A stretch of 64,000 nucleotides of DNA from Thermoanaerobaculia bacterium (GTDB lineage Bacteria; Acidobacteriota; Thermoanaerobaculia; Multivoradales; Multivoraceae): NCBI GenBank assembly GCA_022826745.1, contig JAJDUI010000012.1:69378-133377 (forward strand), in the 5' to 3' direction. The notes below the pieces were generated by a model. That model ran no database searches. It was given only the letters and a program-made list of their open reading frames with translations, and was not told where the DNA came from. Positions within the stretch are counted from its first letter, which is position 1. Each line of letters starts with the position of its first letter. The position numbers and the translations under genes were made by a program. Below are positions 6,396 through 31,128 of the stretch, piece after piece.

Positions 6396-6398
6396 GAC

Positions 6399-6779: not shown

Positions 6780-6884
6780 CCACCTCCCCTGCAGATTCCG
6801 GTCGTTGGCGCACGCTCTGTCGACGGCAGAACCGAAGTCCCAAGGGTCTAGCGCGACCTCGGATTTTGTTTGGGAGATGGAAGG

Positions 6885-7470: not shown

Positions 7471-7494
7471 CGACCTCCCCCGCATGCGGGACGG

Positions 7495-11970: not shown

Positions 11971-11998
11971 AGCGGCTGGGCAGGCGGCGGTAGTCCGA

Positions 11999-12766: not shown

Positions 12767-12843
12767 CGCATCCAGTTCGGGCTCGCCGCTTCGCGGCATC
12801 GCGCCTGATGCGGGTCAGAGGACCCGCGCACCCAGCAGAAGCG

Positions 12844-12878
12844 GAACCGCCGGCGGCCTTGCGGCGCGCCGGCGGTTC
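12844..12878. terminator. strong hairpin between convergent genes (bidirectional terminator candidate)
   Basis: Perfect 12-bp inverted repeat GAACCGCCGGCG (12844-12855) / CGCCGGCGGTTC (12867-12878) with an 11-nt loop. It sits between the stops at 12766 (+) and 12906 (-). There is no clear U-tract. Confidence 0.5.
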
Positions 12879-12905
12879 GCTTGAGCGGACTGACAGGAGG
12901 CCTGA

Positions 12906-14384: not shown

Positions 14385-14600
14385 TCGAGGTCTCCGCGAG
14401 GTGTGGTGTCCAGCGTTCTTGACGGGCGCAACGCTCCCGCTCTGCGCGACATACTATACGACTACTCAGTTTACGCGGGTGAACGCGATCGGGTTTCGCC
14501 GAACCGGCAACCGATACCGTAGGCGTTGCGCGATAACCGGTAGGCGCGAGTAAACCAAGCCCCGCCGACAACCGTATAGACACCCGAGGAGGAGAGCATC

Positions 14601-15587
14601 GTGAGCACGACTGTCGACGTGCAGGGTCTTCGGCATGTCTACAAGGGCGGCACCGTCGCCCTCGACGGGGTCGATCTGACGATCGGCGCGGGCCTGTTCG
14701 GTCTGCTCGGCCCGAACGGCGCCGGCAAGAGCACGCTGATGCGGATCGTCTGCACCCTGCTCAAGCCGTCCACCGGCATCGTGACCGTCTTCGGCCACGA
14801 CGCGGTCAAGGAGCGCCGCGCCGTCCGCGCCCACCTGGGCTACCTGCCGCAGGAGTTCGGCGCCTGGCGCCTGCACCGGGTGGAAGAGGTGCTCGACACC
14901 CTCGCCGATCTCTCCGGTCTGGACGATCGCGCCGCGCGGCGCGATCGCGTCGATACCGTGCTCGACAACGTCGGCCTGGGCGATGTCGCCCATCGCAAGG
15001 TGAAGAAGCTCTCCGGCGGCATGAGGCGCCGCCTGGGCATCGCGCAGGCCCTGATTCACCAGCCCCGCCTGCTCGTGGTCGACGAACCGACCGTCGGCCT
15101 CGACCCGGAGGAGCGCATCCGGTTCCGCCAGTTGATGGCGACCCTGGGGCGCGAGCGGACGATCATCCTCTCGACCCACATCGTCGCCGACCTGGGAACC
15201 GGCTGCAATGACCTCGCCCTTCTCGACGCCGGCAAGATCGTCTTCCGCGGCTCGCCGACACAATTGCTCGAACGGGCCGAGGGCCAGGTCTTCGAACTCG
15301 CCCTGCCGCTCTCCGCGCCGCAGCCCGAGGGCGACTTCGAGATCGTCTCGCGCACCGACAGCCTGAACGGGGCGACGTACCGCGCCGTCGCCGCGCCGGG
15401 CGGCGTTCCGGAAGGCGCCCGAATCGCCGCCTCGCCGACGCTGGAGGAGGGCTACCTCGCCTTCATGGTCGCGCGCGGCCGCGCCGACGCCATCGTGAGC
15501 GACGAGCACTTCGGGGAGCACGACGAGATCGACCTCGCCGAAGTCCCGGCCGCGGCGGACGCCACCGGAGAGGAGGCACGACCTTGA
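14601..15587 (+). CDS. ABC transporter ATP-binding protein (ABC-2 type)
   Basis: GTG start preceded by GAGGAGGAG. Walker A 'GPNGAGKST', signature 'LSGGMRRRL', Walker B 'LLVVDEPTVGLD', H-loop 'ILSTHIV'. Confidence 0.9.
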   Translation: MSTTVDVQGLRHVYKGGTVALDGVDLTIGAGLFGLLGPNGAGKSTLMRIVCTLLKPSTGIVTVFGHDAVKERRAVRAHLGYLPQEFGAWRLHRVEEVLDTLADLSGLDDRAARRDRVDTVLDNVGLGDVAHRKVKKLSGGMRRRLGIAQALIHQPRLLVVDEPTVGLDPEERIRFRQLMATLGRERTIILSTHIVADLGTGCNDLALLDAGKIVFRGSPTQLLERAEGQVFELALPLSAPQPEGDFEIVSRTDSLNGATYRAVAAPGGVPEGARIAASPTLEEGYLAFMVARGRADAIVSDEHFGEHDEIDLAEVPAAADATGEEARP

Positions 15588-18500
15588 TCTCGTTTTCCAA
15601 CGTCTGGTCGCTCGCCAGGGCGGAGATGCGCACGATCCGCCGGCTGTTCCGCTTCTGGCTGTTCGCGGTCATCGCGCTCTTCTTCTGCCTGTTCCAGTAC
15701 GGCTACTTCTGGGTCATCCACGGCCTGTTCTCCGGTTTCTCGGCCTCCGCCGGCTCCTTCAGCCCCAAGTTCCTGCTCAGCCAGACCGCCCTCTGGCAGA
15801 CGCTGGTCCTCGGCGTCGGCGTCGTCTTCCTCGCCTTCGACCTGCGCGCCCGCGACCGGCGCGACCGGGTCATCGAAGTGCTCGACAGCCGGCCCTACAC
15901 GAACGCCGAACTCGTGTTCGGGCGCTTCTTCGGCGCCCTGTTCATGGTCTGGGGCGTGGCGATCGTCGCCATGATCATCATCCAGGGCTTCGGCCACGCG
16001 GGCATGGCCTTCGGCTGGTGGGTCGGCGAACCGGCGATCTGGAGTTCCGTGTGGGCCTACCTCCTGATCGAGGCGCTGCCCGCGCTCGCCGTCTACGTCG
16101 CCTTCGTGCAGGTCGTCTCCCTGGTCAGCAACAACCGCCTGATCGCCGCCCTGGCGGGCGTCGGCCTGGCCGTGGGAACCACCTACCTGAGTTTCCAGGT
16201 GCCCGTCTACGTCCTGCCTTCGCTGGCGCTTGGCGGCGGTTTCGTCAGCAGCATCTCCGACCTGGCGCCCCAGATCTGGACCGGCATCAGCCTGCTGAAC
16301 CGGGGCAGCTTCGCCCTGCTCGGCGCGGGCCTGCTGGCGACCGCGGTCGCCGTCCATCCGCGTCTCGACGACACGAAGCGGCGGACGTGGGCCATGGCCG
16401 GCGGCGCCGGGTTGCTGGCCGGCGCCGCTCTCATCCTGACGACGGTCACGTGGAGCACGACCCAGCTCAACGAGCGCGACGCGTGGCGCGCGGCCCATGA
16501 GCAGCGTCGTACCGAGGCTGTCGTCGACCTTCAGGCGATCCGCGGCTCGGTGGACGTCGAACGCGGCGGTCGTCTGACCCTGGACCTCGAGGTCCACTTC
16601 GTGCCCGGCGATGCCTCGGCCCCCATCTTCACCCTGAATCCGGGTCTGGAGGTGGACGGCGTCTGGGACGCGAGCGGCGCGGCTCTGGACTTCAGCCATG
16701 ACAATGGCCTGCTCGACATCGACTCGGTGTCGACGACGCCGTCCGGGCAGGCCACGGGCGTCCGGATTCGCGCCCAGGGGCGGCCCGACCTCCGTTTCGC
16801 CTATCTCGACGCCGCGGTCGACTTCAACACGATCGAGTGGCAGGACGCCCAGATCGTCATTCTGGGCAACCTGAACGGCTTCGCTCAACGCAACTTCGTC
16901 GCGCTCCCCGCCTCTCTCGCGTGGCTCCCGCGACCCGGAGCAGCGGTCGGCGTCGACGATCCCCGGCAGCGCCCCCGCGACTTCTTCGAACTCGACCTCG
17001 AGGTCAGAACCCCCTCCGGATGGACGGTCGCGGGGCCAGGCAAGGCCCAGCCCAGCGGCGATGGCCAGCGCTTCGCGCCGGCCGGTTCGGTGCCGGAGGT
17101 CATGCTCGTCGCCGGAAGGTACGACCGCTGGACAACGGAGATCGAGGGCACGGAGGTCGAACTTCTGCTCCACCCCGGTCACCTGCGGAACCTGGACTTC
17201 TTCGCCGACGCCAGGGAGGAGATCGAAGCCGTAGCGGCCGAGCGCTTCGCCACCGCCCGCGAACTCGGACTGGCCTACCCCTACCGTCAACTGACCCTGG
17301 TCGAAGTGCCGTGGACGCTACGCGCCTACGGCGGCGGCTGGCGCATGGACACCGAGCGGGCGCCGCCCGGCATGCTGCTGCTCAGCGAGAGCGGTCTGCC
17401 GACCTCGCGCTTCGAGTTCCGGTTCCGCAACCCGGAGCGCTACGAGGACCAGGAAGGCGGACTGGCGCGGGCAAAGACCAACGGGCTGCAGCAGTTCTTC
17501 CGCACCGACTTCACAGGCGGCAACGTGGAGGTCGGCGGCGTTCGCAACCTCTTCCTCTACCAGACCGGCGCCCGCGGCCCCGAGGCCCTGGCGCTGGAGG
17601 CCCTGTGCCACAACCTCGTGAACCGGCTGATCAACGGCGGCGAGTCGTACTTCTCGGCCCACCTGTTCGACCGGGAGTTCGGCTGGACGATCGGGAGCGT
17701 GATGCAGGCCGGGTTCTCGGGCCAGTTCGGGAGCGGCGGCGGCACGATGGCCAGCGGCATCGTCAGGGGCATCACGGACCGCCCCGGCGTCTGGGACGCG
17801 GTGCTCGCAAGCTCCCTCACCGACCTCGACGTAGAGGAAGATCCGAAGCGCGCCGTGAACGCTCTCTACCTCAAGACCTCCGCCCTGGCCACCGCCATTC
17901 TCGACGGCGCCGGCCGGGAGCGAGCCGCCGCCATGATGGCCAACCTCCTCCGCGACCATCGGGGGACGACGTTCACCGCGGCCGATCTCGACCGCGCCGC
18001 CCAGGAGGCGGGCGTGGATCTGGCCGGTCTGGTGGGCGACTTCCTGCACCAGACCGATCTGCCGGGTTTCATCGTCTCGCCGGCCGAGCTCGAACGGCTG
18101 CCCGACGACGACCAGGGTACGCCGCAGTACCAGACCCGCCTGTTCGTCCGCAACGGCGAGGAGGCACCCGGGCTGTTCCGGCTCCGCTACGCGGTGCGCG
18201 CCCCGGGCGGAGCGCGTTGGGACTCGAGCGAACCCGTCCTCATCCCCGGACATACGAGCGTCGAGTTCGGTCTCGTCACCTCCCGGCCGCCCGGGACGAT
18301 GCTCGGGTCGCCGTACCTCTCCCTGAACCGCCGCGAGTTCCCCGTCGAACTGCCACGGGTCGACGACGAGACGATCACGGACAGCGAGCCGCTGCGAGGC
18401 ACCCGACCGGCCGACTGGATGCCGGCATTCCTCGACTCCGGCGCCGACACGATCGTCGTCGACGACCTGGATCCCGGTTTCTCCGTGGCGACGGACGAGG

Positions 18501-19117
18501 CGGAAGCCGGGGGCTTCAGGCTCCAGGGCGGCCTGGCAGGCTTCTTCGCACCCGCGGTCGAGACCGACCAGGGGTTGCAGGTCTACAACCTCTTCAGCGG
18601 CATTCCCGGCACCTGGTCGCGGTACGAACAGGCGTCGAGCTGGGGACGCTATCGCCGGACCACCGCCCTCGTGCCGAAGGGCGAAGGGAGCCGGCGCGCC
18701 ACCTACACGGCGGAGCTTCCCGAAGCCGGCCGCTGGCGGGTCGAGCTGCACGTGCCGTCGCTGTCGCCCGTGCCCGGCGGCGGCGAGATCCGCCGCGAGG
18801 TGCGGATCGGAGGCGGGGACGGCGGCCCGCCCGGCGACGACGCCCGCGGCGCCCAGGTCAACGTCTCGTTCGGCCTGAACCTGGGCACTTACGACCTTGA
18901 GCTTCGCAACGCCGGCAGTTCGCGGCCGATCGACTTCGACGCCGAAGGGGCAGGCATCGGCTGGGCGGTACTCGGCGACTTCGATCTTGCCCCGGGAACG
19001 GTGGAACTCGAACTGAGCGACGACACGACCGGCAACGTCGTGGCCGCCGACGCGGTGCGCTTCGTGCGCCTCGACAACGGCGCCGGCGCCGACACGACCG
19101 GCGGGGGTGCGCCGTGA
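15584..19117 (+). CDS. ABC-2 type permease fused to a ~880-aa extracytoplasmic domain (degenerate M1-aminopeptidase-like region plus golvesin-C-like end)
   Basis: TTG start overlapping the upstream stop (TTGA), with GGAGAGGAGG upstream. The N-terminal ~290 aa have about 6 TM segments and an ABC-2 style 'DRVIEVLDSRPYTNAELVFGRFFG' motif. No HEXXH is present; the nearest is 'CHNLVN'. The C-terminus 'WAVLGDFDLAPGTVELELSDDTTGNVVAADAVRFVRL' resembles golvesin-C-like domains. Confidence 0.7.
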   Translation: MISFSNVWSLARAEMRTIRRLFRFWLFAVIALFFCLFQYGYFWVIHGLFSGFSASAGSFSPKFLLSQTALWQTLVLGVGVVFLAFDLRARDRRDRVIEVLDSRPYTNAELVFGRFFGALFMVWGVAIVAMIIIQGFGHAGMAFGWWVGEPAIWSSVWAYLLIEALPALAVYVAFVQVVSLVSNNRLIAALAGVGLAVGTTYLSFQVPVYVLPSLALGGGFVSSISDLAPQIWTGISLLNRGSFALLGAGLLATAVAVHPRLDDTKRRTWAMAGGAGLLAGAALILTTVTWSTTQLNERDAWRAAHEQRRTEAVVDLQAIRGSVDVERGGRLTLDLEVHFVPGDASAPIFTLNPGLEVDGVWDASGAALDFSHDNGLLDIDSVSTTPSGQATGVRIRAQGRPDLRFAYLDAAVDFNTIEWQDAQIVILGNLNGFAQRNFVALPASLAWLPRPGAAVGVDDPRQRPRDFFELDLEVRTPSGWTVAGPGKAQPSGDGQRFAPAGSVPEVMLVAGRYDRWTTEIEGTEVELLLHPGHLRNLDFFADAREEIEAVAAERFATARELGLAYPYRQLTLVEVPWTLRAYGGGWRMDTERAPPGMLLLSESGLPTSRFEFRFRNPERYEDQEGGLARAKTNGLQQFFRTDFTGGNVEVGGVRNLFLYQTGARGPEALALEALCHNLVNRLINGGESYFSAHLFDREFGWTIGSVMQAGFSGQFGSGGGTMASGIVRGITDRPGVWDAVLASSLTDLDVEEDPKRAVNALYLKTSALATAILDGAGRERAAAMMANLLRDHRGTTFTAADLDRAAQEAGVDLAGLVGDFLHQTDLPGFIVSPAELERLPDDDQGTPQYQTRLFVRNGEEAPGLFRLRYAVRAPGGARWDSSEPVLIPGHTSVEFGLVTSRPPGTMLGSPYLSLNRREFPVELPRVDDETITDSEPLRGTRPADWMPAFLDSGADTIVVDDLDPGFSVATDEAEAGGFRLQGGLAGFFAPAVETDQGLQVYNLFSGIPGTWSRYEQASSWGRYRRTTALVPKGEGSRRATYTAELPEAGRWRVELHVPSLSPVPGGGEIRREVRIGGGDGGPPGDDARGAQVNVSFGLNLGTYDLELRNAGSSRPIDFDAEGAGIGWAVLGDFDLAPGTVELELSDDTTGNVVAADAVRFVRLDNGAGADTTGGGAP

Positions 19118-20199
19118 GCGCCCTTCGACCCCCGGGGCTGCGACTGCTCACCGCCGCCGCAACCTGCGCCACGATCCTCGGCTGCCAGGCCGCGGGCACG
19201 ACGGACACGGTCGACTTTCTGGTTCCGGTGAGCGCCACCGAAGTGGCGACCGGCAACGTGGAGGACCTGATCGTCGCCACCGGCACGTTGCGGACCGCGG
19301 AGAGCATCGTGCTTCAGGTCGAGACGCCCGGCCGGCTGCTGATCGGCCGCAACCGGGACGGCAGCCGGCTGGCCGAGGGCGACCCCGTGGTCCCCGACCA
19401 GATGATCGCCGAAGTCACGGGCGAGGACGCGCGGCTCGCGGCGCGGGTCGAAGCCACCCACCAGGCGTACCAGGGCGCGCTCGCCGAGCGTGACGCCCGC
19501 GCCAGGCTGTTCGAGCAGGAGCTGATCGCCGCCGAGGAACTGCGCCGGGCGGAGACCGCGCTCGAAGACGCCAAGGCAACCTGGGAGCAGAGCCTGCTGA
19601 CCGAAGACCGCGCCAGGATGCTGACCCCGATCGGCGGCGTGCTGATGGAGCTCGCCCGCGACGCGAGAGGCATGCCGATCGCCGATGGCCAGCTCGTTTC
19701 ACAGGGCTTCCAGGTCGCGCGGATCGCTCCCGTCGACTCCCTGGTCGCCGACATCGACCTGGTGGGGCCGGAGCTGGCGCGCGTCCACCCCGGCCAGAAG
19801 GGGCGGCTCCGCCACTTCGCCTGGGAGGACATCACGTTCGAGGGCGCCGTCGTCCGCCTCTCCCCCGAAGTCGACCCGACGACGCACACGTTCCGCGCCG
19901 AGGTCGCGATCAACAACCCCGGGGGCCTGCTCCGGCCCGGCATGTTCGTCGAGGTCACCCTGGTCGTCGAACAGCGCAGCGACGTGCCGGTGATCCCCCG
20001 CGAGGCGGTCACCGAGCGCGGCGGCCGGCGGGTCGTGTTCGTACTCGACGGCCAGCGCGCCGTGCGCCGCGAGGTCGTCCTCGGCCTGGGCGACGACGAG
20101 ATCGCCGAGGTCCGCCAGGGGCTCGAGGTCGGCGAGCGGATCGTCGTCCGCGGACTTGAGACACTGACCGACGGCACGCGCGTCCGGGTGTCCGGCTAG
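19114..20199 (+). CDS. efflux transporter periplasmic adaptor (membrane-fusion protein, HlyD/RND MFP family), lipoprotein
   Basis: GTGA overlap with the upstream stop. Lipobox 'ATILGCQAAG'. Coiled-coil-rich middle, and a C-terminal 'VPVIPREAV...VFVL...V.LG' beta-barrel pattern typical of MFPs. Confidence 0.85.
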   Translation: MSALRPPGLRLLTAAATCATILGCQAAGTTDTVDFLVPVSATEVATGNVEDLIVATGTLRTAESIVLQVETPGRLLIGRNRDGSRLAEGDPVVPDQMIAEVTGEDARLAARVEATHQAYQGALAERDARARLFEQELIAAEELRRAETALEDAKATWEQSLLTEDRARMLTPIGGVLMELARDARGMPIADGQLVSQGFQVARIAPVDSLVADIDLVGPELARVHPGQKGRLRHFAWEDITFEGAVVRLSPEVDPTTHTFRAEVAINNPGGLLRPGMFVEVTLVVEQRSDVPVIPREAVTERGGRRVVFVLDGQRAVRREVVLGLGDDEIAEVRQGLEVGERIVVRGLETLTDGTRVRVSG

Positions 20200-20227
20200 C
20201 GCCGCCCACCAGGAAGGTCGGGCAACC

Positions 20228-23200: not shown

Positions 23201-23413
23201 CCGATCCTCATGACGACGCTCACCACGGTGCTGGTCCTCGTGCCGCTCGCCGCCGGCGCCGGGGAGGCGGCTGAATTGCGGAGCCCGATGGCCTACACGA
23301 TCATCGGCGGCATCGTGACCTCCACCCTCGGTTCGCTGCTGGTGCTGCCCTGCCTGTACCTCATCCTGGCCGGCCGTGGCGGCGGAACGCGACGCACGGA
23401 AGCCGAAGCCTGA
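20228..23413 (+). CDS. RND family efflux transporter permease
   Basis: 1061-aa ORF with the AcrB-like N-terminus 'RRPVAVTVTALACALVGWMSWRELPIDLLPDL'. TM4 reads 'GLALGAGMLVDNAIVVVESI', and the two-fold 6-TM plus large-loop organisation is present. Confidence 0.9.
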   Translation: MIAAPGEGSGPARLAARRPVAVTVTALACALVGWMSWRELPIDLLPDLRSPTIVVAVRSGDRPPTEMERLYGEQVEQRLFTVRGIREVQQVARTGRLIATVRFDWEADMDLALIEVQKSINPVAADAEVDEVLVRQLDPRQSPVMTLGLAAEPDGPDLAELRRLARRQVAPAMEQLADVAEVRVLGGRELEVRVRVDRYRMQAFGVTLGQLEQRLVAENVDIDAGTLEDRGQVFLVRGISRFRNPRDVERVVIRYRTQAGAAGQETRQPIRVSDVAEVEVADAEIDHLVRVNGREGVGLQVFKEAGANTVEVSRTVRSALEDLELDLPRVEVSMVNDDAALVEDAMADLQNAALVGIALAIVVLVLFLRSFGPTVVVASAVPVSLFVALFAMRLWDHSLNIITLAGLALGAGMLVDNAIVVVESIHRRHRPGVPAAESAARGTGEVAGAIAASTLTTCVVFLPVLFVQGLAARLIEGIAFTVTASLAASLAVAMMLIPALSRWFLPRAKPGAGTDAGEAAAEAADAGSTGPGDADERPLGWAFGALERLVLFLLRLRWVVVGAAVLAAAVAVNVLLGLGSELLPPADPRQFSVRMVGPPGQRVEATAAAVSTLEEAVRQAAGEHLEAIQAEVGRLPEDDRLVTTELTEENTARLLVRMSAEGPTGSQIVGALSSSFADLPGTEIEWEVGTSALAEALGSSGPPIVVEIAGQSLPDLRAAATSLRGSLAASEELWNVRSSFEGGPPELRIELDRAMADGLGVDLETIARVLQSALDGRKVTLLSVGDEERHVVLSLPQPRPEELAGLRFTSSDGADLVLGQVARFVPTEGAREVFRRDQRRVAQVTARITEGSDYPRAIAAANDAISSTELPPGLIVRLAGEEEERERATSELRLAGLLAIVLVLMVLAGTFESLLQPLTVLFAIPLALVGVACTLGPLGRPVGVMALLGLIVLAGVAVNDAVLLIAAARRLMAAGVERRAALARAAAIRLRPILMTTLTTVLVLVPLAAGAGEAAELRSPMAYTIIGGIVTSTLGSLLVLPCLYLILAGRGGGTRRTEAEA

Positions 23414-23426
23414 CCGGGAACGCGCC

Positions 23427-26400
23427 GTGAAAGCAGGTCTCGACACGCTCGCCATCCGCCGTCCGGTCGCGGTGTCGATGTTCTTCGTCGGCCTCGTCCT
23501 GCTGGGGGGCTTCGCGTGGCAACGGCTGCCGGTGGAGCTCTTCCCCGCGCTGACGGGCGATTCGCTCTACGTCAGTTTCTTCCGTCCGGGCAGCGAGCCG
23601 GAGACGGTGGAACGCGAGATCCTGATGCCGCTCGAAGCCAGGGTGCGAACCCTGCCCCGGGTGGCCGAGACCTGGGGCGAGGTCACCGGCTCCTCCGGCA
23701 GCTTCACCGTCCGCTTTGAACGAGGCGTCGATCTCAAGGTGCGGGAACTCGAGATGCGCCGCATCGCCGCGGATCTGGCCCGCACGCAGCCGCGCGACGC
23801 GTTCCTCGACGTGCAGTCCGACGACACGAGTGTGTTCTCGAGCTTCGCCATGATCCTGCAGGCGACCGGTTCGGACGACGAGGACGCGCTGCACGACCTG
23901 GTCGAGGAACTGATCACGCCCCGGCTCGCCGCGGTGCCCGGGGTCAGCCAGGCAATGGTGGGCGGCGGCGCCGCTCGCCAGTTGACCGTGTGGGTCGACC
24001 CGAACCGCTGCGCGGCGCTCGGCGTGACGACGGAGGAGGTCACCGCGGCCGTACGCGGCGCGGCCGGACGGCTTCGCTACCTCGGCAGCCTGGAGGACGA
24101 AGCCGGGCGAACGGCCGTGATGCTCGACGGCCGTCCCGTCGGCACCGTGTCGATGGGCGAGGTCCGGGTCGTCCCCGACCGCCCGGTGCTGGTCCGGCAC
24201 GTCGCCGACGTCGAGATCGGTTCCGGGCGTCGCCAGATGCTCTACCGCGTGAACGGCGAGCCATCCGTCGGCGTTCTCGTGTTCCAGGAGGAAGGCGCGA
24301 ACCTGGTCCGCCTCGGCCGCGACCTGCGCCGCCGTATCGAGGAGATCAACGAGGAGTTCACCCCGCTCGGGATTCGCCTCCTCGTCAGCTTCGACGCCGC
24401 CGAACTGGTCGAAACGCAGATCGACCGGCTGCGGAACCTCGGCCTGTCGGGTTTCGCGATCGCTCTCCTGGTCCTGTTCCTGTTCCTTCGCCAGTGGCGC
24501 GCCGTGGCCGTGGTCGCGGTCGCCGTACCGGTCAGCCTGGCCGTCGCCCTTTCCTTCCTCTACGTGGCCGGCCTGTCGCTCAACCTCTTCACTCTGTTCG
24601 GTCTCGCCGTCGGCATCGGACTCATCGTGGACAACAGCGTCGTCGTGTACGAGTCCGTCCAGCGGCGCCTGGAACGCGGCAGGAGCCCCGACGACGCCGC
24701 CGCGGGCGGCATTCGCCGCACCGGCCGCGCCATTGTCGCCGCTTCCGTCACGACCGGGATCGTCTTCCTGCCCGCAGTCATCGTCGACCTGGAGTCGTCG
24801 CTGGTCCAGAACCTGATCGGGCTCCTGTCACTCGCCATCCTGCTGCCCCTGTTCGGCTCGCTGCTCGTGGCAATCGGCCTGGTGCCCCTGCTGGCGCGCC
24901 ATCTCGCCGCACCGGCGGCGATCCGCCGGTTGAGCAAGCTGCGCCAACGTCGCGAGCGCTTCGGCGGCAAGGCGCCGCCGGACCCCACCCGAATCCTCTT
25001 CGCGGGCGTGCTCGCATCCGCGCTGCGCCGGCCGGCGAGCTGGATCACCGGAGTCGTGACCGCCGTCGTCCTGAGCGTCATCGCCGCCCTGTTCCTCGTC
25101 GCTTCCAGCGGACCGGGTCAGGCGCCGATCGCCGACCAGGTCCAGCTCTCCGTGCGCCTGCCGGAGGGACGCGGCAGCCTCGAGTCGGCGGTCCGGGCCT
25201 TCGAACGTCTCGAAACGGTCCAGGAGGTGGACGGCGTAGACCGCGTGGAGAGCATGATCCGGGAAGAAGGGGGATCGCTGACCGTCCACCTCGTGGACGA
25301 AGACGAACGGCCCGAGGACCTGACGGCGGCCTTCGTCCGTAGACTCCTGCGGCCGCCCGCCCGCCGCGCCGGCGTCGAACTCCTGAATCCGGGCGAGGGA
25401 GAAGGACCGGGCGGCCGTGGTGGCGGCGGCGGGGGCGCCCAGGAACTGCTCGGCGGCGGCCCCTCCCGAGTCGTGCTCTCCGGCAACGACAACGAACAGT
25501 TGACCGACCTCGCGGCCCAGGTCACGGAGCGGTTGCGGGAGATCGAGGGCATCGCGAGCGCCTACCCGGCGGTGCGCCCGGGGCCCGATGAACTCCACGT
25601 GAGTCCGAACCGCCGGGCCTTCGACACCTTCGGCGTGCTGCTGGACGAGGTGTTGCCCATGCTCAATCTGGCCGGCCGGGAAGGCACCCGGATCGCCACC
25701 GGCTTCCCGCTGGCCAGCGGACGGGAGCTCCCGATCGTCGTGCAACGGCAGGAGAGCCAGCGCGACGAAGCGCAGTTGATGGACGGCAGCAGCTTCAACC
25801 GCGACGTCTCGCTCAGCGGCCTGCAGCGGCTCCGCGTCTCGACCGGGATCGGCGTGCTGCCGGTCGCCGCCCTGGCGCAGGTGCGGCAGGCGCCTCCCTC
25901 CCCGGTCATCACCCACCACAACGGAGTCCGCGAACGCGAGGTGCTGTACACGTTGTCGCAGGACGTGCCGCGGCGGGGCCCGGCCCGTGACGCGTTCGAC
26001 CGGAGTCTGGACGAAGCGATCGCCAGCATTCACCGGCCCGCAGGCACGACGATCGCGCTCGACCGCTCCGAGGAAAGCACGAACTGGTTCCGGCGCATCG
26101 CCGTGCCGGTCGTTCTTCTCGTCTTCCTCGTGCTGGCCGTGACGTTCGAGTCGATGACCCTGCCGATCCTCGTCCTCATCGCGCTTCCGCTCGCCCTGCT
26201 CGGTTCCGTGTGGGCGCTGGTCGTGACCGGCATGGGGTTCGAGGCGATGGCTCTCCTGGGGGCACTGGTGCTGCTGGGACTCGCGATCAACCCGGCCGTC
26301 CTGCTCGTCGACCGGATGCAGCAGCACACCCTGGGCGCCGGCTGGAGCGCCGGCGCGGCCGCACTCGCCGCGGTCCGCGAGCGGGCCCGTCCCGTGTTGA

Positions 26401-28232
26401 TGACGTCCGCCACGACGATCGCCGCCCTGGCGCCCCTCTCTATCTCGACCGGCCGCGAGAACGAACTCTGGCCACCCTTCGCCACGCTCGTGATCGGCGG
26501 CCTTCTGACCGCGACCGTGCTGACGCTGCTCGTCATCCCCGTCGGCTTCGTCTTCCTCCGCCGGCTCGACGAGCTGTTCAGTCGCGTGGGCCCCTGGGTG
26601 GTGCTCACCTGGCTCGGCGCCGTCATCGCGACCACGGCGCCTCTGTTCGCGTTCGGCGTGATCGAGTCGCTGTTCTGGCAGGTCACCACGACGGTGCTCA
26701 TCGCCGGCGCGCTGCTGGGTCTCACCGTCTGGCTGCTGCCGAAACCGGCGACGCCGGAACCGGAAGCCGTCAGCGGGCCGCCCAGGCTCGTCGTTCGTCA
26801 CCTGCGCAAGACGTACGGCCTTCCCGGACCGGTGCGCCGGGCGCTGCGAGCTTCCACGGAGTTCGCCAGGCGCGTCGCTTCCGCCGGCGGCCAGGCGTTC
26901 CATCCGGCCGACGCGCGCGACCGGCTCCTGCCCCTGTTGCTGCTGCTGGCCGGCGCGATCACCCTGGCCGTGCGCATCCGCGGCGGTCTGGTCATCCTCG
27001 GCATCTGGATCGCGATCCTGCTCCTCGGCTCCAGCCTGCTGCGCGAGATCCGGCGGGCCCGCGGCCACGCCGACGCGCTGGGGCGCGTGAAGCCGGGCGG
27101 CATCGAGGGTGTGCTGACGGCCCTGCTGCCCTGGGGGATCCTCGCGTGGCTGGTCGGCCCGGAGATGGTCGCCGACCCGGAGATCGCCGGCTTCGTCGCC
27201 CTGGCCATCGTCTCCGCGATCATCCTGCTGATCCAGCTCGGGCGGCGTACGGCACGCGTGGAGACGATGCGCCGGGACCAGAAGACGTCTCGGCGCCGCC
27301 GCGCCCGGGGCCTGCGCGGCCAGATCCTCCGTCTCTGGCGCGCCGCCGCAACCAAGCTCTTCGGCCTCGACCTGCCGATCGACACCGTAAAGGCCCTGGC
27401 CGCGGTCAGCTTCGAGGTCGACCGCGGCATGGTCGGCGTGCTCGGCCCGAACGGCGCCGGCAAGACGACCCTGCTGCGGCAGTTGACCGGCATCCTGGAC
27501 TCGACCCGGGGCCGCATCACGCTGGGCGGCGTGCCGCTGCTCAGCGTCCGCAAACGCCTCGCGCGCTACGTCGGCTACCTGCCCCAGGACGCCGGCCTGC
27601 CCCCTCGTCTGACCGCCCGCCAGTACCTCGAGTACTACGCCGCGCTCTACCAGATCGACGCCTCCGAGCGGGCCGAGCGCATCTCGACCCTGCTGCGGGA
27701 GGTCGGTCTCGACGAGCGGGCCGACGAGCAGATCGGCGGCTACTCCGGCGGCATGCGGCAGCGCGTCGCGGTGGCGCGCACCCTGCTCCGACTGCCTCCG
27801 ATCATCGTCGTCGACGAGCCCACGGTCGGCCTCGATCCCCGGGAACGGGTCCGCTTCCGCAACCTGCTCTCGCGTCTGGCCAAGGACCGGATCGTCCTGT
27901 TCTCCACCCACGTCGTCGAAGACGTCGCCGTGGCGTGCGAGCGGGTCCTCGTGCTGACGCGCGGCCGCATGGTCTTCGACGGCCATCCGGCGGCCCTGTC
28001 GCGGGAAGCGGAGGGCCGGGTGTGGTCGTGGCGGACCGCGGACGGCGGCGAGGCGCCGGATCTGCCGGAAGGCGCGGTGCTGGCTGACCAGAAGCCGGAA
28101 GCCGACGGCACCAGCAGCCTGCGCGTGCTTGCCGCGGCCCGTCCCGACGAACGGGCCGAGCCGGTCGAACCGACCCTGGAGGACGGCTACCTGTGGCTCG
28201 CCCGGTCGGTGCGTGGAGAGGCGCCGGCATGA
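23427..28232 (+). CDS. RND efflux permease fused in one ORF to extra TM segments and a C-terminal ABC ATPase domain
   Basis: Likely GTG start at 23427, 13 nt after the previous stop ('VKAGLDTLAIRRPVAVSMFFVGLVLLGGFAWQRLPVELFP'). The RND body runs to about nt 26580 (TM4 'GLAVGIGLIVDNSVVVYESV'). Two TM helices follow, then the ABC-like strand 'PRLVVRHLRKTYG' (about 26781), a ~190-aa hydrophobic insert, and a complete NBD. The NBD has Walker A 'GPNGAGKTT' (about 27444), 'YSGGMRQRV', 'IIVVDEPTVGLD' and 'LFSTHVVED'. The frame is open throughout. Confidence 0.75.
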   Translation: MKAGLDTLAIRRPVAVSMFFVGLVLLGGFAWQRLPVELFPALTGDSLYVSFFRPGSEPETVEREILMPLEARVRTLPRVAETWGEVTGSSGSFTVRFERGVDLKVRELEMRRIAADLARTQPRDAFLDVQSDDTSVFSSFAMILQATGSDDEDALHDLVEELITPRLAAVPGVSQAMVGGGAARQLTVWVDPNRCAALGVTTEEVTAAVRGAAGRLRYLGSLEDEAGRTAVMLDGRPVGTVSMGEVRVVPDRPVLVRHVADVEIGSGRRQMLYRVNGEPSVGVLVFQEEGANLVRLGRDLRRRIEEINEEFTPLGIRLLVSFDAAELVETQIDRLRNLGLSGFAIALLVLFLFLRQWRAVAVVAVAVPVSLAVALSFLYVAGLSLNLFTLFGLAVGIGLIVDNSVVVYESVQRRLERGRSPDDAAAGGIRRTGRAIVAASVTTGIVFLPAVIVDLESSLVQNLIGLLSLAILLPLFGSLLVAIGLVPLLARHLAAPAAIRRLSKLRQRRERFGGKAPPDPTRILFAGVLASALRRPASWITGVVTAVVLSVIAALFLVASSGPGQAPIADQVQLSVRLPEGRGSLESAVRAFERLETVQEVDGVDRVESMIREEGGSLTVHLVDEDERPEDLTAAFVRRLLRPPARRAGVELLNPGEGEGPGGRGGGGGGAQELLGGGPSRVVLSGNDNEQLTDLAAQVTERLREIEGIASAYPAVRPGPDELHVSPNRRAFDTFGVLLDEVLPMLNLAGREGTRIATGFPLASGRELPIVVQRQESQRDEAQLMDGSSFNRDVSLSGLQRLRVSTGIGVLPVAALAQVRQAPPSPVITHHNGVREREVLYTLSQDVPRRGPARDAFDRSLDEAIASIHRPAGTTIALDRSEESTNWFRRIAVPVVLLVFLVLAVTFESMTLPILVLIALPLALLGSVWALVVTGMGFEAMALLGALVLLGLAINPAVLLVDRMQQHTLGAGWSAGAAALAAVRERARPVLMTSATTIAALAPLSISTGRENELWPPFATLVIGGLLTATVLTLLVIPVGFVFLRRLDELFSRVGPWVVLTWLGAVIATTAPLFAFGVIESLFWQVTTTVLIAGALLGLTVWLLPKPATPEPEAVSGPPRLVVRHLRKTYGLPGPVRRALRASTEFARRVASAGGQAFHPADARDRLLPLLLLLAGAITLAVRIRGGLVILGIWIAILLLGSSLLREIRRARGHADALGRVKPGGIEGVLTALLPWGILAWLVGPEMVADPEIAGFVALAIVSAIILLIQLGRRTARVETMRRDQKTSRRRRARGLRGQILRLWRAAATKLFGLDLPIDTVKALAAVSFEVDRGMVGVLGPNGAGKTTLLRQLTGILDSTRGRITLGGVPLLSVRKRLARYVGYLPQDAGLPPRLTARQYLEYYAALYQIDASERAERISTLLREVGLDERADEQIGGYSGGMRQRVAVARTLLRLPPIIVVDEPTVGLDPRERVRFRNLLSRLAKDRIVLFSTHVVEDVAVACERVLVLTRGRMVFDGHPAALSREAEGRVWSWRTADGGEAPDLPEGAVLADQKPEADGTSSLRVLAAARPDERAEPVEPTLEDGYLWLARSVRGEAPA

Positions 28233-28906
28233 TCACGGTGCTGCGGACCTCCGCGGTCCTGCTCGCCGGACGCAGGTACTGGTTGCTGCCATTCCTGCCT
28301 CTCGTATGGCTGGGAATACAGGCCGTCATGCTGGTGGCCGGGATGCGGCCCAGCGTGGAGCCGGTGGCCGCCCAGAACGCCCTGATCGGCGTGCCGGTGG
28401 CGGTTCTCGCCATCTTCCTGGGCGGGCGCACGATCACCGGCGAACTCGACCAGCACAGCCTGGAGATCGCCTACACCGTGCCCGGAGGCGCCCACCGCGT
28501 CTGGCTCGGCAAGCTCGCCGCCGCCATCCTGATGCTGCTCACCAGCCTGGTTCTCCTGGCCGTCGTCACCTATGCCTTCTTCACCGACTTCCCGGTCCTG
28601 TCGAGCCTGTACGGCGCCACCCAGGGAGTCGTCTTCTACCTCGCGGCGGCGATGGGCTTCGGAACGCTGTTCCGCAGCGAGGTTGCCGGCTCCCTGGCCA
28701 CCGTCGGCCTTCTCGGCCTGAACAGCCTGCTCAGCGCGCTCCGCATCTCACCGTTCTGGAATCCGCTCACCGTGGAAGAAGCCGACGCGGCGCAGATGCT
28801 CGCGCTGAACGTTCAGAACCGCATTGGCGTCGCTCTCGCGATCGCGGCGATCGTTGCGCTCACCTTCAGCCGAGCGGAACGTCGCGAGAAGATGCTCGCC
28901 GGCTGA
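28229..28906 (+). CDS. 6-TM ABC-2 type permease (copy 1)
   Basis: ATG overlaps the stop of the fused ATPase (ATGA, 28229-28232). It has the ABC-2 style motif 'ITGELDQHSLEIAYTVPGGAHRVWLGKLAA' and multiple TM segments. It is a paralogue of 29784-30467. Confidence 0.75.
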   Translation: MITVLRTSAVLLAGRRYWLLPFLPLVWLGIQAVMLVAGMRPSVEPVAAQNALIGVPVAVLAIFLGGRTITGELDQHSLEIAYTVPGGAHRVWLGKLAAAILMLLTSLVLLAVVTYAFFTDFPVLSSLYGATQGVVFYLAAAMGFGTLFRSEVAGSLATVGLLGLNSLLSALRISPFWNPLTVEEADAAQMLALNVQNRIGVALAIAAIVALTFSRAERREKMLAG

Positions 28907-28990
28907 ACGCAGCCTTCGTACTCGATCTGACACGCAGCCACCCGCCACCCCGCCCCGCTCAGGTCACTCCACCGCAAGCGCACTCCGTTT

Positions 28991-29008
28991 TCCGTCTAGA
29001 TCCATAGG
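28991..29008 (+). promoter_or_regulatory. conserved 18-nt motif upstream of peptide gene 1
   Basis: TCCGTCTAGATCCATAGG is identical at 16/18 positions to 30576-30593 in the equivalent intergenic region of the duplicated module. It lies 157 nt upstream of the ATG. Its function is unknown. Confidence 0.35.
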
Positions 29009-29164
29009 CGGTCCACCGCCGCCGCAAGCGCCCCTGGGCGTTGCGGCGCTCCGGACCTGTGGAGGTCTTCCGCACGCGGAGGATCTTCCGCCGATCCACG
29101 TCGGCTGTCTGCCCGAACCGGGCCGACGGCAACACGAGACCTATGGAACGAAAGGAAACGAATC

Positions 29165-29464
29165 ATGATGAAGAAGATCCTGCCTGTTGCAGTGACAACA
29201 CTGGTGCTTGTGCTGAGTGCTGGTAGTACGTTCGCAGAGCCACCGGACCCCGCCGCCCCAAGCGACACATCCGGCATCGACTACGACCAGTTCCAACGAC
29301 TCCCGGACGCCGAAATGGCGGCAGTGACCGGAGGCGCCTGGTGGTCCGGAGGCTGCACCGGCGTCATTCGCGGGGCTGGCTTCATTCTCTGGTTGCATGG
29401 TCTTGCCGGCAACCCGGTCCAACAGGGTGTTGGGCTCTACATGCAACAGGTGGAGTGTGCGTAG
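29165..29464 (+). CDS. small secreted peptide precursor 1 (Sec signal plus double-glycine-type motif plus 42-aa two-Cys core)
   Basis: 99-aa ORF with RBS GAAAGGAA. Signal peptide 'MMKKILPVAVTTLVLVLSAGSTFA'. 'LPDAEMAAVTGG' fits the L(-12) E(-8) M(-7) V(-4) G(-2) G(-1) pattern. The core is 'AWWSGGCTGVIRGAGFILWLHGLAGNPVQQGVGLYMQQVECA'. It is a paralogue of 30727-31008. Confidence 0.6.
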   Translation: MMKKILPVAVTTLVLVLSAGSTFAEPPDPAAPSDTSGIDYDQFQRLPDAEMAAVTGGAWWSGGCTGVIRGAGFILWLHGLAGNPVQQGVGLYMQQVECA

Positions 29465-29485
29465 CCGGCCCGTCTTCTGCCGGCT
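29463..29485 (+). terminator. hairpin overlapping the stop codon of peptide gene 1
   Basis: AGCCGGC (29463-29469) / GCCGGCT (29479-29485) form a perfect 7-bp stem with a 9-nt loop, followed by TCAGTT. The T-tract is weak. Confidence 0.35.
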
Positions 29486-29745
29486 TCAGTTGACGACACT
29501 CGCCGCCTTCTCTCTGAGGTCCCCGAGGGACGGACAGACTGCATAACGCGGCTCTCACTTTGACAGGCGCGATGACGATGTTCATTAGTCCACAAAGCCA
29601 CTTCCAAATGGGGGCTGCATCACCTGCGGCACAAGGGCGTCAATCGGCCCCACGTGCCTCTCCAAGTGGGCGCATCATCTTCGTCGCCATCGCGCCGTCG
29701 TCGTCCGTCTCGCTTCATCAGCTCCCAGGTACCAAGCACAGCAAG

Positions 29746-29787
29746 ATCTGGCTCGCTCGGGCAGCGGTCGTTGCAGCCCCGGCATGA
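29746..29787 (+). pseudogene. remnant of an ABC ATPase 3' end retained in the duplicated module
   Basis: 'ATCTGGCTCGCTCGGGCAGCGGTCGTTGCAGCCCCGGCATGA' (IWLARAAVVAAPA*) aligns with the 3' end of the fused ATPase at about 28189-28232 ('YLWLARSVRGEAPA*'), including the ATGA junction. Upstream of about 29740 I see no NBD similarity. Confidence 0.45.
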
Positions 29788-30467
29788 TCACGATCATCCG
29801 ACTCTCCGCAGTGCTCCTCGGGGGCCAGCGCTACTGGCTGCTACCCCTGTTGCCCCTGCTGTGGCTGGCGGGCCAAGCAATGCTGCTCGTCGCCAACGTT
29901 CGGCCGAGCTTCGAACCCGTCGCCGCACAGAACACACTGATAGGAGTGCCAGTCGCGGTCCTCGCAGCGTTTCTGGGCGGCCGGATCATCGCTGGCGAAC
30001 TCGACCAGCGCACAATCGAGATCGCCTACACAGTACCCGGGGGTACCCGCTTCGTCTGGTTTGGGAAGCTCGCAGCCGCGGCCTTGCTCCTGGCTGCCAG
30101 CGCGGCATTGAGCGCGGCGTTGACGTTCGCTCTCTTCACTCCGTTCCCCGTCCTCCAGACTCTCTATGGGGCAGTGCAGGGAGCCCTCTTCTCCCTGGTA
30201 GCGACCAACGGGCTCTCAACACTCTTCCGCAGCGAAACCGCAGGTGCCATGGCCGCCACCGTTGTACTTCTCGTGAACGTTCGGTTCCCAACGACCCACT
30301 TCCGCGTCTCGCCGTTCTGGAACCCGCTCACGGTGGAGGGAGCAGACGCCGATCGGTTGGTCGCGATGGCCGTCCAGAACCGGATCGGGATCGCGCTCGT
30401 CATTGCCGCCATCCTCGCGCTCACCTTCGCCCGCGCGGAACGCCGCGAGCGAATGCTGGGCGGCTGA
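29784..30467 (+). CDS. 6-TM ABC-2 type permease (copy 2, paralogue of 28229-28906)
   Basis: 227-aa ORF colinear with copy 1: 'MITIIRLSAVLLGGQRYWLLPLLPLLWL...IAGELDQRTIEIAYTVPGG...SPFWNPLTVEGADA...QNRIGIALVIAAILALTFARAERRERMLGG'. By eye about two-thirds of residues are identical. No cognate ATPase gene is adjacent. Confidence 0.75.
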   Translation: MITIIRLSAVLLGGQRYWLLPLLPLLWLAGQAMLLVANVRPSFEPVAAQNTLIGVPVAVLAAFLGGRIIAGELDQRTIEIAYTVPGGTRFVWFGKLAAAALLLAASAALSAALTFALFTPFPVLQTLYGAVQGALFSLVATNGLSTLFRSETAGAMAATVVLLVNVRFPTTHFRVSPFWNPLTVEGADADRLVAMAVQNRIGIALVIAAILALTFARAERRERMLGG

Positions 30468-30575
30468 GATCGCACCCGGTACTCCTCACTGGCGCGCAGG
30501 TGCACCCCTCCCGCGCGAACCACGCCATCGTCCGCGCGGCCTCGTCTTCACGAGTGCCAAGTCCGTCCGCTCGAA

Positions 30576-30593
30576 TCCGTCCAGATCCATAGA
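30576..30593 (+). promoter_or_regulatory. conserved 18-nt motif upstream of peptide gene 2
   Basis: TCCGTCCAGATCCATAGA is the second copy of the motif at 28991-29008. It lies 134 nt upstream of the ATG. Confidence 0.35.
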
Positions 30594-30726
30594 TGGCGTA
30601 CGACCGTTCGTTGCGCCGAGAACCGCGCCGGTGAGTCGACGGGCGAAGCACCTCCAAGGCGAAGCCACGCCCTCAAGAACCTCGCGGGATCAACCAAAGA
30701 ACAAGAACCGAGAAAGGAACCCAACA

Positions 30727-31008
30727 ATGAAGAGAGCCCTGACCATCGCACTGGCGGTCGTCGTGTTCGGCGCCGGCACTGTGTTCGCACTGGCGCCGCA
30801 CCCGACTCCAGTGGACGACGCCGCGAACATCGATGCCTACGACCTCGGACCGCTCTCCGAAACGGATCTCCGCGCCGTCTTCGGCGCTCGATGGACCGCG
30901 TGTACCGCCGACCTTACGATGGCCCAGATGCACTTCATGGCCGGCAATCCAGTCGCGGGAGCCTTCCATCTCCTCGCGGCGTATCTCCGTCCGGCGATCT
31001 GCTCGTGA
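30727..31008 (+). CDS. small secreted peptide precursor 2 (Sec signal plus G-A double-glycine-type motif plus 39-aa two-Cys core)
   Basis: Internal ATG of track ORF 30403..31008, with RBS GAAAGGAA. Signal peptide 'MKRALTIALAVVVFGAGTVFALA'. 'LSETDLRAVFGA' fits L(-12) D(-8) L(-7) V(-4) G(-2) A(-1). The core is 'RWTACTADLTMAQMHFMAGNPVAGAFHLLAAYLRPAICS'. It shares 'IDxYD', 'AGNPV' and both Cys positions with peptide 1. Confidence 0.6.
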   Translation: MKRALTIALAVVVFGAGTVFALAPHPTPVDDAANIDAYDLGPLSETDLRAVFGARWTACTADLTMAQMHFMAGNPVAGAFHLLAAYLRPAICS

Positions 31009-31128
31009 GAACGGGCGGAGGAGCCGGAGCTTGACTACCGTCGTCCGGCACGCCGCCGTGCTGCTCGGGGGTCCAGGGAATCGAGGTTCAGATGACCCGT
31101 TGAATCACCGCGAATCCCGACTACCGGG

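Follow-up and report, generated by a model that had tools for sequence, protein, structure and literature searches.

We analysed a stretch of 64,000 nucleotides (hereafter the window) from a Thermoanaerobaculia bacterium (contig JAJDUI010000012.1, positions 69,378 to 133,377), with a G+C content of about 70%, whose nearest genomes are Candidatus Multivorans metagenome-assembled genomes (MAGs; Acidobacteriota, Thermoanaerobaculia) with 97-98% protein identity over the ATPase part. The locus under study, at 14601-31008, comprises nine plus-strand open reading frames (ORFs), all present at the positions reported in the initial annotation. They encode ATP-binding cassette (ABC) and resistance-nodulation-division (RND) transport proteins and two small secreted peptides, and form two systems in series, namely a six-gene pump (14601-28906) and a set of peptide/permease cassettes (28907-31008). 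The features of the locus are as follows.

14601-15587 (+): ATP1, an ABC-2-type ATPase of 328 amino acids (aa) with a C-terminal regulatory-type domain (Pfam ABC_tran, E 2e-31)
15584-19117 (+): giant ABC-2 permease, 1177 aa (Pfam ABC2_membrane_2 at the N-terminus, Golvesin_C at the C-terminus)
19114-20199 (+): lipoprotein periplasmic adaptor (membrane fusion protein, MFP), 361 aa (RND_mfp, HlyD_D23, lipobox)
20228-23413 (+): RND permease 1 (RND1), 1061 aa (Pfam ACR_tran, E 4e-199)
23427-26735 (+): RND permease 2 (RND2, about 1060 aa) with two extra membrane helices, first part of the fusion (ACR_tran, E 3e-147)
26787-27380 (+): first beta strand of the fused ATPase (LVVRHLRKTYG) with an insertion of about 185 aa (alignment, AlphaFold2 model)
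27381-28232 (+): rest of the fused ABC ATPase with a C-terminal domain (Pfam ABC_tran, E 9e-28)
28229-28906 (+): PERM1, the core small ABC-2 permease, 225 aa (start overlapping the stop of the fusion gene)
28991-29011 (+): conserved 21-nt motif TCCGTCTAGATCCATAGGCGG, start of the structured leader of about 175 nt of peptide 1 (motif scan)
29165-29464 (+): peptide 1 precursor, 99 aa (translation; family profile, E 1e-36)
29784-30467 (+): PERM2, an accessory small ABC-2 permease, 227 aa, with no ATPase gene of its own (ABC2_membrane_2, 28.3 bits)
30576-30596 (+): second copy of the motif, TCCGTCCAGATCCATAGATGG, 130 nt before peptide 2 (motif scan)
30727-31008 (+): peptide 2 precursor, 93 aa (translation; family profile, E 5e-31)

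The first six genes overlap at TTGA (15584-15587), GTGA (19114-19117) and ATGA (28229-28232), or are separated by gaps of 28 nt between the adaptor and RND1 and 13 nt between RND1 and the fusion gene; re-reading of the sequence reproduced all five junctions as first annotated. The G+C content at third codon positions (GC3) is 0.88-0.93 in these core genes, against 0.69 and 0.78 in the two peptide genes and 0.79 in PERM2. Because of the overlapping or near-abutting junctions, the uniform GC3 and a gene order that recurs in other genomes, 14601-28906 is probably a core operon of six genes for a composite envelope exporter.

The six-gene RND-ABC cassette

RND2 and an ABC ATPase are encoded in a single unbroken ORF (23376/23427-28232; 1601/1618 aa) that matches both ACR_tran and ABC_tran. 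A protein search found more than 120 clusters of about 1600 aa, 54-98% identical, that hold both domains. In addition, a scan of species-representative genomes with the linker and ATPase region of the fusion as query returned 80 loci, and an RND2-like ORF of more than 1300 aa, in which the RND part runs straight on into the ATPase part, was identified in 78 of them. The full-length clusters and the 78 genome loci bear out the fusion proposed in the initial annotation and rule out an assembly or frameshift artefact as its source.

Past the twelfth transmembrane segment (TM) of the RND part, the fusion protein continues with two membrane helices, the first strand of the ATPase, the insertion and the Walker A strand. 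The insertion consists of one amphipathic helix and four membrane helices, and downstream of it the strand VKALAAVSFEVDRG leads into the Walker A motif GPNGAGKT. The two pieces that flank the insertion are contiguous in ATP1 (VDVQGLRHVYKGG / TVALDGVDLTIGAG). An AlphaFold2 model of the C-terminal part of the fusion (predicted local distance difference test score, pLDDT, 82) has the same layout as the sequence alignment, with the extra helices at residues 2-33 and 40-61, the strand at 79-88 and further helices at 93-110, 118-141, 146-169, 183-207 and 212-242. The insertion splits the ATPase in all aligned homologues. Among sequences in the PDB, the fused ATPase is nearest to the nucleotide-binding domains of ABCA4/7/3/1, and its fold resembles TM_1403 and NosF. 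ATP1, whose best NCBIfam models are DrrA, GldA and NosF-like and whose start follows a GGAGGAG ribosome-binding site, is 37% identical to the fused ATPase and has in common with it a C-terminal TLE[ED]GYL motif. Both proteins carry the Walker A, Q-loop, signature, Walker B and H-loop motifs of ABC-2 exporter ATPases.

The adaptor upstream of the RND pair has its lipobox (ILGC) at residues 21-24, matches Pfam HlyD_D23 and scores 155.9 bits with the NCBIfam model RND_mfp (cut-off 94.9). RND1 has ZneA and MdtB as its nearest solved structures. Its TM4 reads VDNAIVV in 59 of 63 family members, and its TM10 reads GVAVNDAVLL in the window protein, a motif confirmed in only some homologues. TM4 and TM10 of RND2 read VDNS and GLAINPAVLLV, where family-conserved Asn residues replace D408 and K940 of AcrB. 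The D-N pair at the place of AcrB D407-D408 is found family-wide in both RND paralogues, while Asn at the K940 place occurs in both window proteins and family-wide in RND2, which retains the equivalents of R971 and T978. The AcrB-type proton relay (D407, D408, K940, R971, T978) is thus incomplete in the RND pair, and energy coupling may differ from the textbook relay.

The giant permease combines an ABC-2 membrane domain (residues 1 to about 307; ABC2_membrane_2, 21.7 bits against a cut-off of 27.2), to which all hydropathy-predicted membrane segments are confined (residues 27-288), with a domain resembling M1 aminopeptidases (residues about 315-1000), predicted from topology to be periplasmic, and a C-terminal beta-sandwich similar to Golvesin_C. 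A PDB sequence search with the protein returned no significant match. The AlphaFold2 model of the large domain (pLDDT 86; predicted template modelling score, pTM, 0.84) was matched by Foldseek against the PDB to IRAP, ERAP1, PepN and EryP, with about 650 aligned columns and E-values between 1e-15 and 1e-13, and the best 50 PDB matches listed (E 6e-16 to about 3e-13) were all M1 enzymes, in keeping with the four-domain M1 fold. Neither the HExxH zinc site nor the GxMEN exopeptidase motif was found in the window protein or in 44 homologues. Given an M1 fold that lacks the catalytic zinc motif, the modelled domain most likely binds a ligand rather than cuts it. The giant permease accordingly has its multi-domain fold in common with M1 zinc aminopeptidases, among them EryP, which acts on lanthipeptide leaders, but differs from them by the absence of HExxH-x18-E and GxMEN and by its fusion to ABC-2 membrane and Golvesin_C-like domains. 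An active M1 leader peptidase is ruled out by the same absence, and a GldF/GldG-type protein was also considered and rejected, the GldF match being weak (E 0.0024).

The order GIANT-MFP-RND1-RND2::ATPase-PERM is kept in about 65 of the 80 species-level loci, and ATP1 is also retained in L001-L006 (L-numbers are labels of the homologous pump loci compared with that of the window). The PERM1 counterpart directly follows the fusion gene in most of the 80 loci, across phyla; the Pfam match of PERM1 itself to ABC2_membrane_2 is weak (16.4 bits, below the cut-off of 27.2). The loci come from genomes labelled as Candidatus Multivorans, Thermoanaerobaculia, Vicinamibacterales, Gammaproteobacteria/Pseudomonadales/Candidatus Azotimanducaceae, Desulfatiglandales/Desulfobacterales and, in one case, a Planctomycetia MAG; one of them belongs to an isolate, Acidobacteria bacterium Mor1 (CP011806; L072). 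The names of some related MAGs hint at a sponge or marine metagenome origin. Across several phyla (Acidobacteriota, Gammaproteobacteria, Desulfobacterota and others) the core cassette is 45-75% identical and almost always devoid of peptide genes. Peptide genes are also missing from the close relatives L003/L004, L012, L015 and L075. The fusion protein of L003/L004 is 89-92% identical to that of the window and a VapB/PIN pair stands in place of the peptides; in L015 and L075, the peptide cassette slot holds nothing. No recurrent small ORF bearing a signal peptide was found downstream of the pump in other phyla, with the exception of one protein of 140 aa in Vicinamibacterales.

This Vicinamibacterales protein (140-143 aa; L002 15631-16053, L031 12524-12955) follows the small permease and has a signal peptide, a central hydrophobic segment and two cysteines, its sequence being unrelated to the peptide family of the window. 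In a gammaproteobacterial subset (L037, L043, L047, L050, L051, L055, L064, L071 and L077), the fusion and the small permease are alone, the giant permease, adaptor and RND1 not being recognisable directly upstream of the fusion; L055 has a giant-permease homologue downstream instead. The fusion and the small permease may represent a minimal unit.

A literature search found no description of an RND-ABC fusion or of a system of this composition, in line with the initial annotation, and no match for Candidatus Multivorans. The six-gene RND-ABC hybrid cassette is widespread yet undescribed.

The peptide family and its cassettes

Both peptide precursors follow a common plan, with a signal (MKK...AFA), a pro-region of about 32 aa and a core of 39-49 aa. 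In peptide 1, which has an AAAGGAA ribosome-binding site upstream, the Sec-type signal spans residues 1-24 (29165-29236), the pro-region with its double-glycine leader, ending in LPDAEMAAVTGG, residues 25-57 (29237-29335), and the core residues 58-99 (29336-29461), with Cys64 and Cys98. Peptide 2 has its signal at residues 1-21, a pro-region at 22-54 ending in LSETDLRAVFGA and a core at 55-93 with two cysteines, the second penultimate; this core is of the more conserved "class 2" type. Both window leaders fit the double-glycine consensus, and the predicted monoisotopic masses of the oxidised cores are 4427.155 Da (peptide 1) and 4204.009 Da (peptide 2).

Identical copies of peptide 1 occur in 11 contigs from several metagenomes, in which the ORFs were called by independent gene callers. 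The upstream gene order was the same in all six of the contigs examined, and five of the six also encode the 93-aa peptide 2. Homologues amount to 90 unique peptides of 90-123 aa. The family profile matched 65 clusters in a word-indexed search, but out of 1.84 billion representative proteins only 30 reached E<=0.001, so that the family is small and narrow.

The double-glycine leader consensus is known from class II bacteriocins, and consists of Gly at -2, a small residue at -1, hydrophobic residues at -4, -7, -12 and -15, and an acidic residue at -8. Among the 90 unique peptides, position -2 is G in all 90, -1 is G or A in 64, -4 is V in 67, -7 is M or L in 82, -8 is D or E in 84, -12 is L in 80 and -15 is L, F or I in 74. 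The sole database match of peptide 1, a weak one of its leader (E 0.023), was to the BlpC pheromone model, which accords with a double-glycine leader. All members carry ahead of this leader a Sec signal with n-, h- and c-regions (MKK..., a hydrophobic stretch of about 15 residues, AFA/VFA). In this they depart from bacteriocins, whose leader lies at the extreme N-terminus without a Sec signal and is processed in the cytoplasm. The two cysteines are invariant, with a spacing of 33-38 residues in 63 of the 64 members examined and of 40 in the remaining one, and the second is always penultimate. The cores are hydrophobic (mean grand average of hydropathy, GRAVY, 0.70), contain 16% Gly and have a charge of about +1. 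Judged by these features, the peptides look like double-glycine-leader bacteriocins but with a Sec signal, and constitute a new, narrow family. Their Sec signal, leader and predicted disulfide-bounded hydrophobic core agree with the earlier proposal that they are plausible cargo.

Members of the family were found only in the Candidatus Multivorans group, at 17 of the fetched loci. Every peptide gene found lies at most about 4.7 kb downstream of the fusion gene, in an alternation of permease, peptide, permease and peptide. Accessory permeases are likewise restricted to this group, in which they adjoin the peptide genes. They are 63-72% identical to the core permease (66% between PERM1 and PERM2) and diverge most at residues 136-180. 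PERM2, at 28.3 bits against the ABC2_membrane_2 cut-off of 27.2, is the sole ABC-2 permease of the locus above that threshold. As first annotated, ABC-2 permease paralogues do accompany the peptides, since at every locus that retains the core permease the permease copies equal or exceed the peptide genes in number. No ATPase gene was found within the peptide/permease cassettes at any locus, leaving the RND-fused ATPase and ATP1 as sole candidates. Downstream permeases are 0.79 identical between pairs of the same core type and 0.72 between pairs of different types, which suggests that accessory permeases tend to co-vary with core type. Strict cognate pairing of a peptide core with its upstream or downstream permease was rejected, the core-type effect being modest and the correlation weak (Pearson about 0.05-0.31).

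Each peptide gene of the window is preceded, 130-155 nt upstream of its start, by the TCCGTCYAGATCCATAG motif, of consensus TCCGTC(Y)AG(R)TCCATAG(R)YGG, which matches the window twice against 0.00 matches expected. The motif is found upstream of the peptide genes in the aligned loci L005-L019, L028, L034 and L056; in relaxed form it occurs in 14 peptide-bearing loci only, always on the plus strand, and none of 72 peptide-free loci has it. Within cassettes of class 1, TCCATAGG of the motif pairs with CCTATGGA just 5' of the ribosome-binding site and closes a four-hairpin leader, with a fold z-score of -4.9 and compensatory changes in seven base pairs across 12 sequences. The stretches concerned in the window are 28985-29180 and 30576-30726. 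The leader has no match in Rfam, and no sigma-70 promoter or terminator was detected above chance in 28800-31300. Motif and leader may together correspond to a promoter plus a cis-regulatory RNA.

The peptide cores diversify under conserved leaders in part of the family. In the main class, leaders at least 80% identical were found in 147 pairs, 67 of which have cores less than 40% identical, against 3 pairs with the reverse pattern. A conserved leader with a variable core across the whole family was rejected, as the pattern holds within class 1 only, the cores of class 2 being no less conserved than the leaders that precede them. Comparison of the window with L007-L009 (93-94% DNA identity) revealed homology over PERM1, the intergenic region and the signal or leader of peptide 1, which breaks at 29246-29379 and resumes only at 31129, at the downstream flanking gene; L009 is an exception, with a 77%-identical stretch over PERM2 and peptide 2. 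The position of these breaks therefore designates the peptide core and the downstream permease(s) as the variable unit, which by analogy resembles polymorphic toxin and bacteriocin loci. The peptide/permease part of the locus is a lineage-specific, recombining add-on.

Other genes occupy the slot between the pump and its downstream flank. ORFs similar to AbrB/VapB antitoxins were found there in L003/L004 (15586-16261), L005 (17653-17937) and L011 (15157-15504); that of L003/L004 has a PIN-domain partner, and in some strains the antitoxin ORF replaces the peptide cassettes. The cassette region of L011 also contains, at 12380-13021, a fragment like the core of IS3-family integrases (...YSYQRPHQALGGLTP...) beside an inverted peptide gene (11736-12077, minus strand), which suggests rearrangement mediated by a mobile element.

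Two related loci carry a peptidase gene among their peptide genes. In L020 (Candidatus Multivorans azotirespirans), a stand-alone Peptidase_C39 (11709-12332; Pfam E 2.3e-29) lies between the fusion and peptide genes and has the Gln, Cys, His and Asp residues of the family (...RQRGESDCGAAAL..., ...DHFVVV..., ...DDP...). In L011, a homologue 58% identical to it (about 13760-14388) belongs to a tight permease-C39-peptide array beside the IS3-like fragment. In its canonical form, a C39 domain is a cytoplasmic portion of an ABC exporter, normally at the N-terminus. The two stand-alone C39 proteins have an N-terminal Arg-rich segment (RR) and a hydrophobic helix, a predicted signal or anchor of their own, and are therefore predicted to act outside the cytoplasm, which fits the Sec signal on the precursors.

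Known systems and genomic surroundings

The likeness to MdtABC and to MacAB with its substrate STII, raised in the initial annotation, can be considered a reasonable functional lead (PMC7015380; PMC5985334). As in MdtABC and MuxABC, an adaptor gene precedes two tandem RND paralogues in the window operon (19114-28232); in E. coli, the MdtB/MdtC pair works as an MdtB2C heterotrimer (PMC7015380). The window system differs by the fusion of RND2 to an ABC ATPase through six membrane helices, by the addition of two ABC-2 permeases and a second ATPase, by Asn at the places of AcrB D408 and K940 in both paralogues, and by the lack of an outer-membrane factor gene (OEP family) among the window ORFs scanned. 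Its RND proteins also score far below the equivalog models, RND1 reaching 336.8 bits for MdtC (cut-off 1774) and 313.1 for MdtB (cut-off 1584), and RND2 231.9 and 220.2, respectively; both fall below the RND_permease_2 cut-off of 1250.

MacAB-TolC expels from the periplasm the Sec-exported, DsbA-oxidised and disulfide-bonded enterotoxin STII, and PvdRT-OpmQ is an ABC and adaptor pump that expels the periplasmically matured peptide pyoverdine (PMC5985334). The route from periplasm to outside is the one proposed here for the window peptides. This is a mechanistic resemblance and not membership, as the window permeases match ABC2_membrane_2 and not FtsX/MacB_PCD, the adaptor scores 34.9 bits against the MacA cut-off of 342, and the window system includes an RND pair.

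With class II microcins and bacteriocins such as colicin V (CvaAB-TolC), the window peptides share the leader consensus position by position, a small, Gly-rich, hydrophobic and unmodified-looking core with a predicted disulfide, and core diversity under conserved leaders, and C39 genes adjoin family members in L011 and L020. They differ by the Sec signal ahead of the leader and by the absence of a C39-ABC fusion transporter at the window locus, the C39 of relatives standing alone. The placement of ABC-2 permease genes beside a peptide gene is shared with LanFEG, BcrAB and McbEF; the window cassettes lack the dedicated ATPase of LanFEG and McbEF, and no significant match to a named NCBIfam immunity-permease model was obtained.

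According to the initial annotation, the window contains no outer-membrane factor, C39 peptidase, modification enzyme or regulator. None of the first three was found among 39 window ORFs scanned against Pfam, and tblastn likewise detected no C39 homologue in the window. The statement does not hold for regulators, since a protein with an AraC-type helix-turn-helix (HTH) is encoded at 9018-10346 (minus strand), 4 kb upstream of the locus; this gene is not conserved beside the locus. Its HTH is fused to a Diphthami_syn_2 domain and it lies in a stretch of lower G+C (4001-10000; 0.60-0.64 versus about 0.70 elsewhere) that may be an acquired island, in which the minus-strand ORFs 4125-4982, 5412-6395 and 7495-9240 are without Pfam matches. 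The divergent upstream neighbour of the pump (12906-14384, minus strand) encodes a protein of 492 aa with weak Cu2_monoox_C, cytochrome c and EF-hand matches, and adjoins the pump only within the Candidatus Multivorans group. Further downstream, a CbbQ/NorQ-type AAA_5 ATPase lies beside a 740-aa von Willebrand A (VWA) protein (36418-39488, minus strand), with a second VWA protein at 42982-45375 (plus strand); this resembles a MoxR/VWA-type chaperone pair and bears no relation to the pump locus.

Proposed export route and competing explanations

We lean, by a little more than an even chance, towards co-option, in a single lineage, of a general hybrid exporter for the secretion of bacteriocin-like peptides and the protection of their producer, as judged from gene content and sequence features. 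The lipoprotein adaptor and the two tandem RND paralogues have the gene order of an MdtABC-like pump, and the latter could form a heterotrimer. This pump is tethered, as both the sequence and the structural model show, through the RND2-fused ATPase to an ABC-2-type transporter, whose permease partners would be the small 225-aa protein and the giant protein. Export would then proceed in two hard-wired steps. The ATP-driven ABC-2 part would extract an amphipathic substrate from the cytoplasm or inner membrane, and pass it to the RND/adaptor part for expulsion through an outer-membrane channel encoded elsewhere. In the case of the peptides, the precursor would be exported by Sec, the invariant cysteines would form a disulfide loop in the periplasm, the double-glycine-type leader would be cut off in the same compartment, and the pump would expel the hydrophobic core of 39-49 residues across the outer membrane. 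Removal of the leader in the periplasm is supported by the stand-alone C39 peptidases with a signal or anchor in L020 and L011. The accessory permeases could plug into the RND-fused ATPase, and clear the peptide from the inner membrane of the producer and/or feed the pump.

Several observations weigh against this co-option model. The pump lacks peptide genes in most lineages, so that proximity could reflect only the origin of accessory permeases by duplication of the core permease. The window ORFs include neither a C39 peptidase nor an outer-membrane factor, and L020 has peptide and C39 genes with no permease detected on its short contig. Position -1 of the leader is E, K, R or T in 26 of the 90 peptides (29%), which is atypical of C39 substrates. 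The overall identity of peptide cores correlates only weakly with that of neighbouring permeases, and intergenic gap lengths give no peptide-permease operon order. Finally, the equivalents of AcrB D408 and K940 are missing from both RND paralogues, which casts doubt on RND energy coupling.

The same lack of peptide genes at most pump loci favours an explanation that we regard as rather unlikely, in which the cassettes form a bacteriocin-immunity system independent of pump export and the peptide leaves by another route. The peptide would kill competitors by acting on the small permease of the pump or on a different membrane protein. Accessory permeases would shield the producer as toxin-insensitive variants or decoys instead of exporting the peptide, and the cassettes would sit beside the pump only through duplication of its last gene. 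Many class II bacteriocins indeed use membrane transporters as receptors, and the accessory permeases are paralogues of the core permease that outnumber the peptides, like orphan immunity genes, at a recombination hot spot with other inserts (VapB/PIN in L003/L004, the IS3-like fragment in L011). However, these permeases retain both terminal segments that are conserved in functional ABC-2 subunits, every family member found is linked to the pump, and no other exporter lies nearby among the window ORFs scanned. The strict co-location with the pump is also what would be expected if the peptides were not toxins, but secreted signalling pheromones or small accessory subunits, periplasmic or membrane-bound, that modulate the pump in the way AcrZ acts on AcrB. 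Regulated expression is suggested by the motif and structured 5' leader that precede each peptide gene, and the weak BlpC match of the peptide 1 leader points in the same direction. We nevertheless find such a role improbable, since the swapping of cores under conserved leaders and the replacement of core plus downstream permease are hallmarks of antagonistic peptides, no sensor kinase or response regulator is encoded nearby among the window ORFs scanned, and a structural subunit ought to accompany the pump throughout, yet most pump loci lack one.

The initial annotation regarded the nine genes as one dedicated peptide export and immunity machine with the cis-encoded peptides as its primary substrate. 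It did not mention the double-glycine leader, the M1-like fold of the giant permease, the helices inserted in the fused ATPase or the C39 genes of the two related loci. The genes are indeed co-directional and adjacent, their order is the same in independent assemblies, and the search for peptide genes at homologous pump loci was positive at the 17 Candidatus Multivorans loci; at most other loci, it was negative. Conservation of the six-gene core across phyla without a comparable downstream peptide gene, and its intact state in the peptide-free close relatives L003/L004, L015 and L075, argue against a pump dedicated to peptides. Considering also the distinctly lower GC3 of the peptide genes and their own upstream motif, we judge a single nine-gene machine very improbable. 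In a bolder reading, the fusion would define a new hybrid transporter class, in which ATP hydrolysis by the tethered ABC domain drives or gates an RND pump with a degenerate proton relay, beyond supplying it with substrate; separately, the peptides would be the first Sec-dependent bacteriocins with double-glycine leaders, cleaved by an extracytoplasmic stand-alone C39. We hold this to be unlikely.

In diderm bacteria, efflux depends mainly on two machineries, the RND and the ABC pumps, which are regarded as distinct systems with different energy sources. The conservation of an RND-ABC fusion across several phyla, at least one cultured strain (Mor1) among its hosts, argues that both pump types can work as one machine, and makes the long-discussed two-step model, in which an inner-membrane pump feeds a tripartite pump, directly testable. 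Likewise, the bacteriocin field takes the exporter itself to cleave double-glycine leaders within the cytoplasm, whereas a Sec signal ahead of such a leader, together with stand-alone C39 peptidases that are predicted to be exported, points to maturation in the periplasm by another route. In the Candidatus Multivorans group, the locus defines a new and diversifying family of small peptides.

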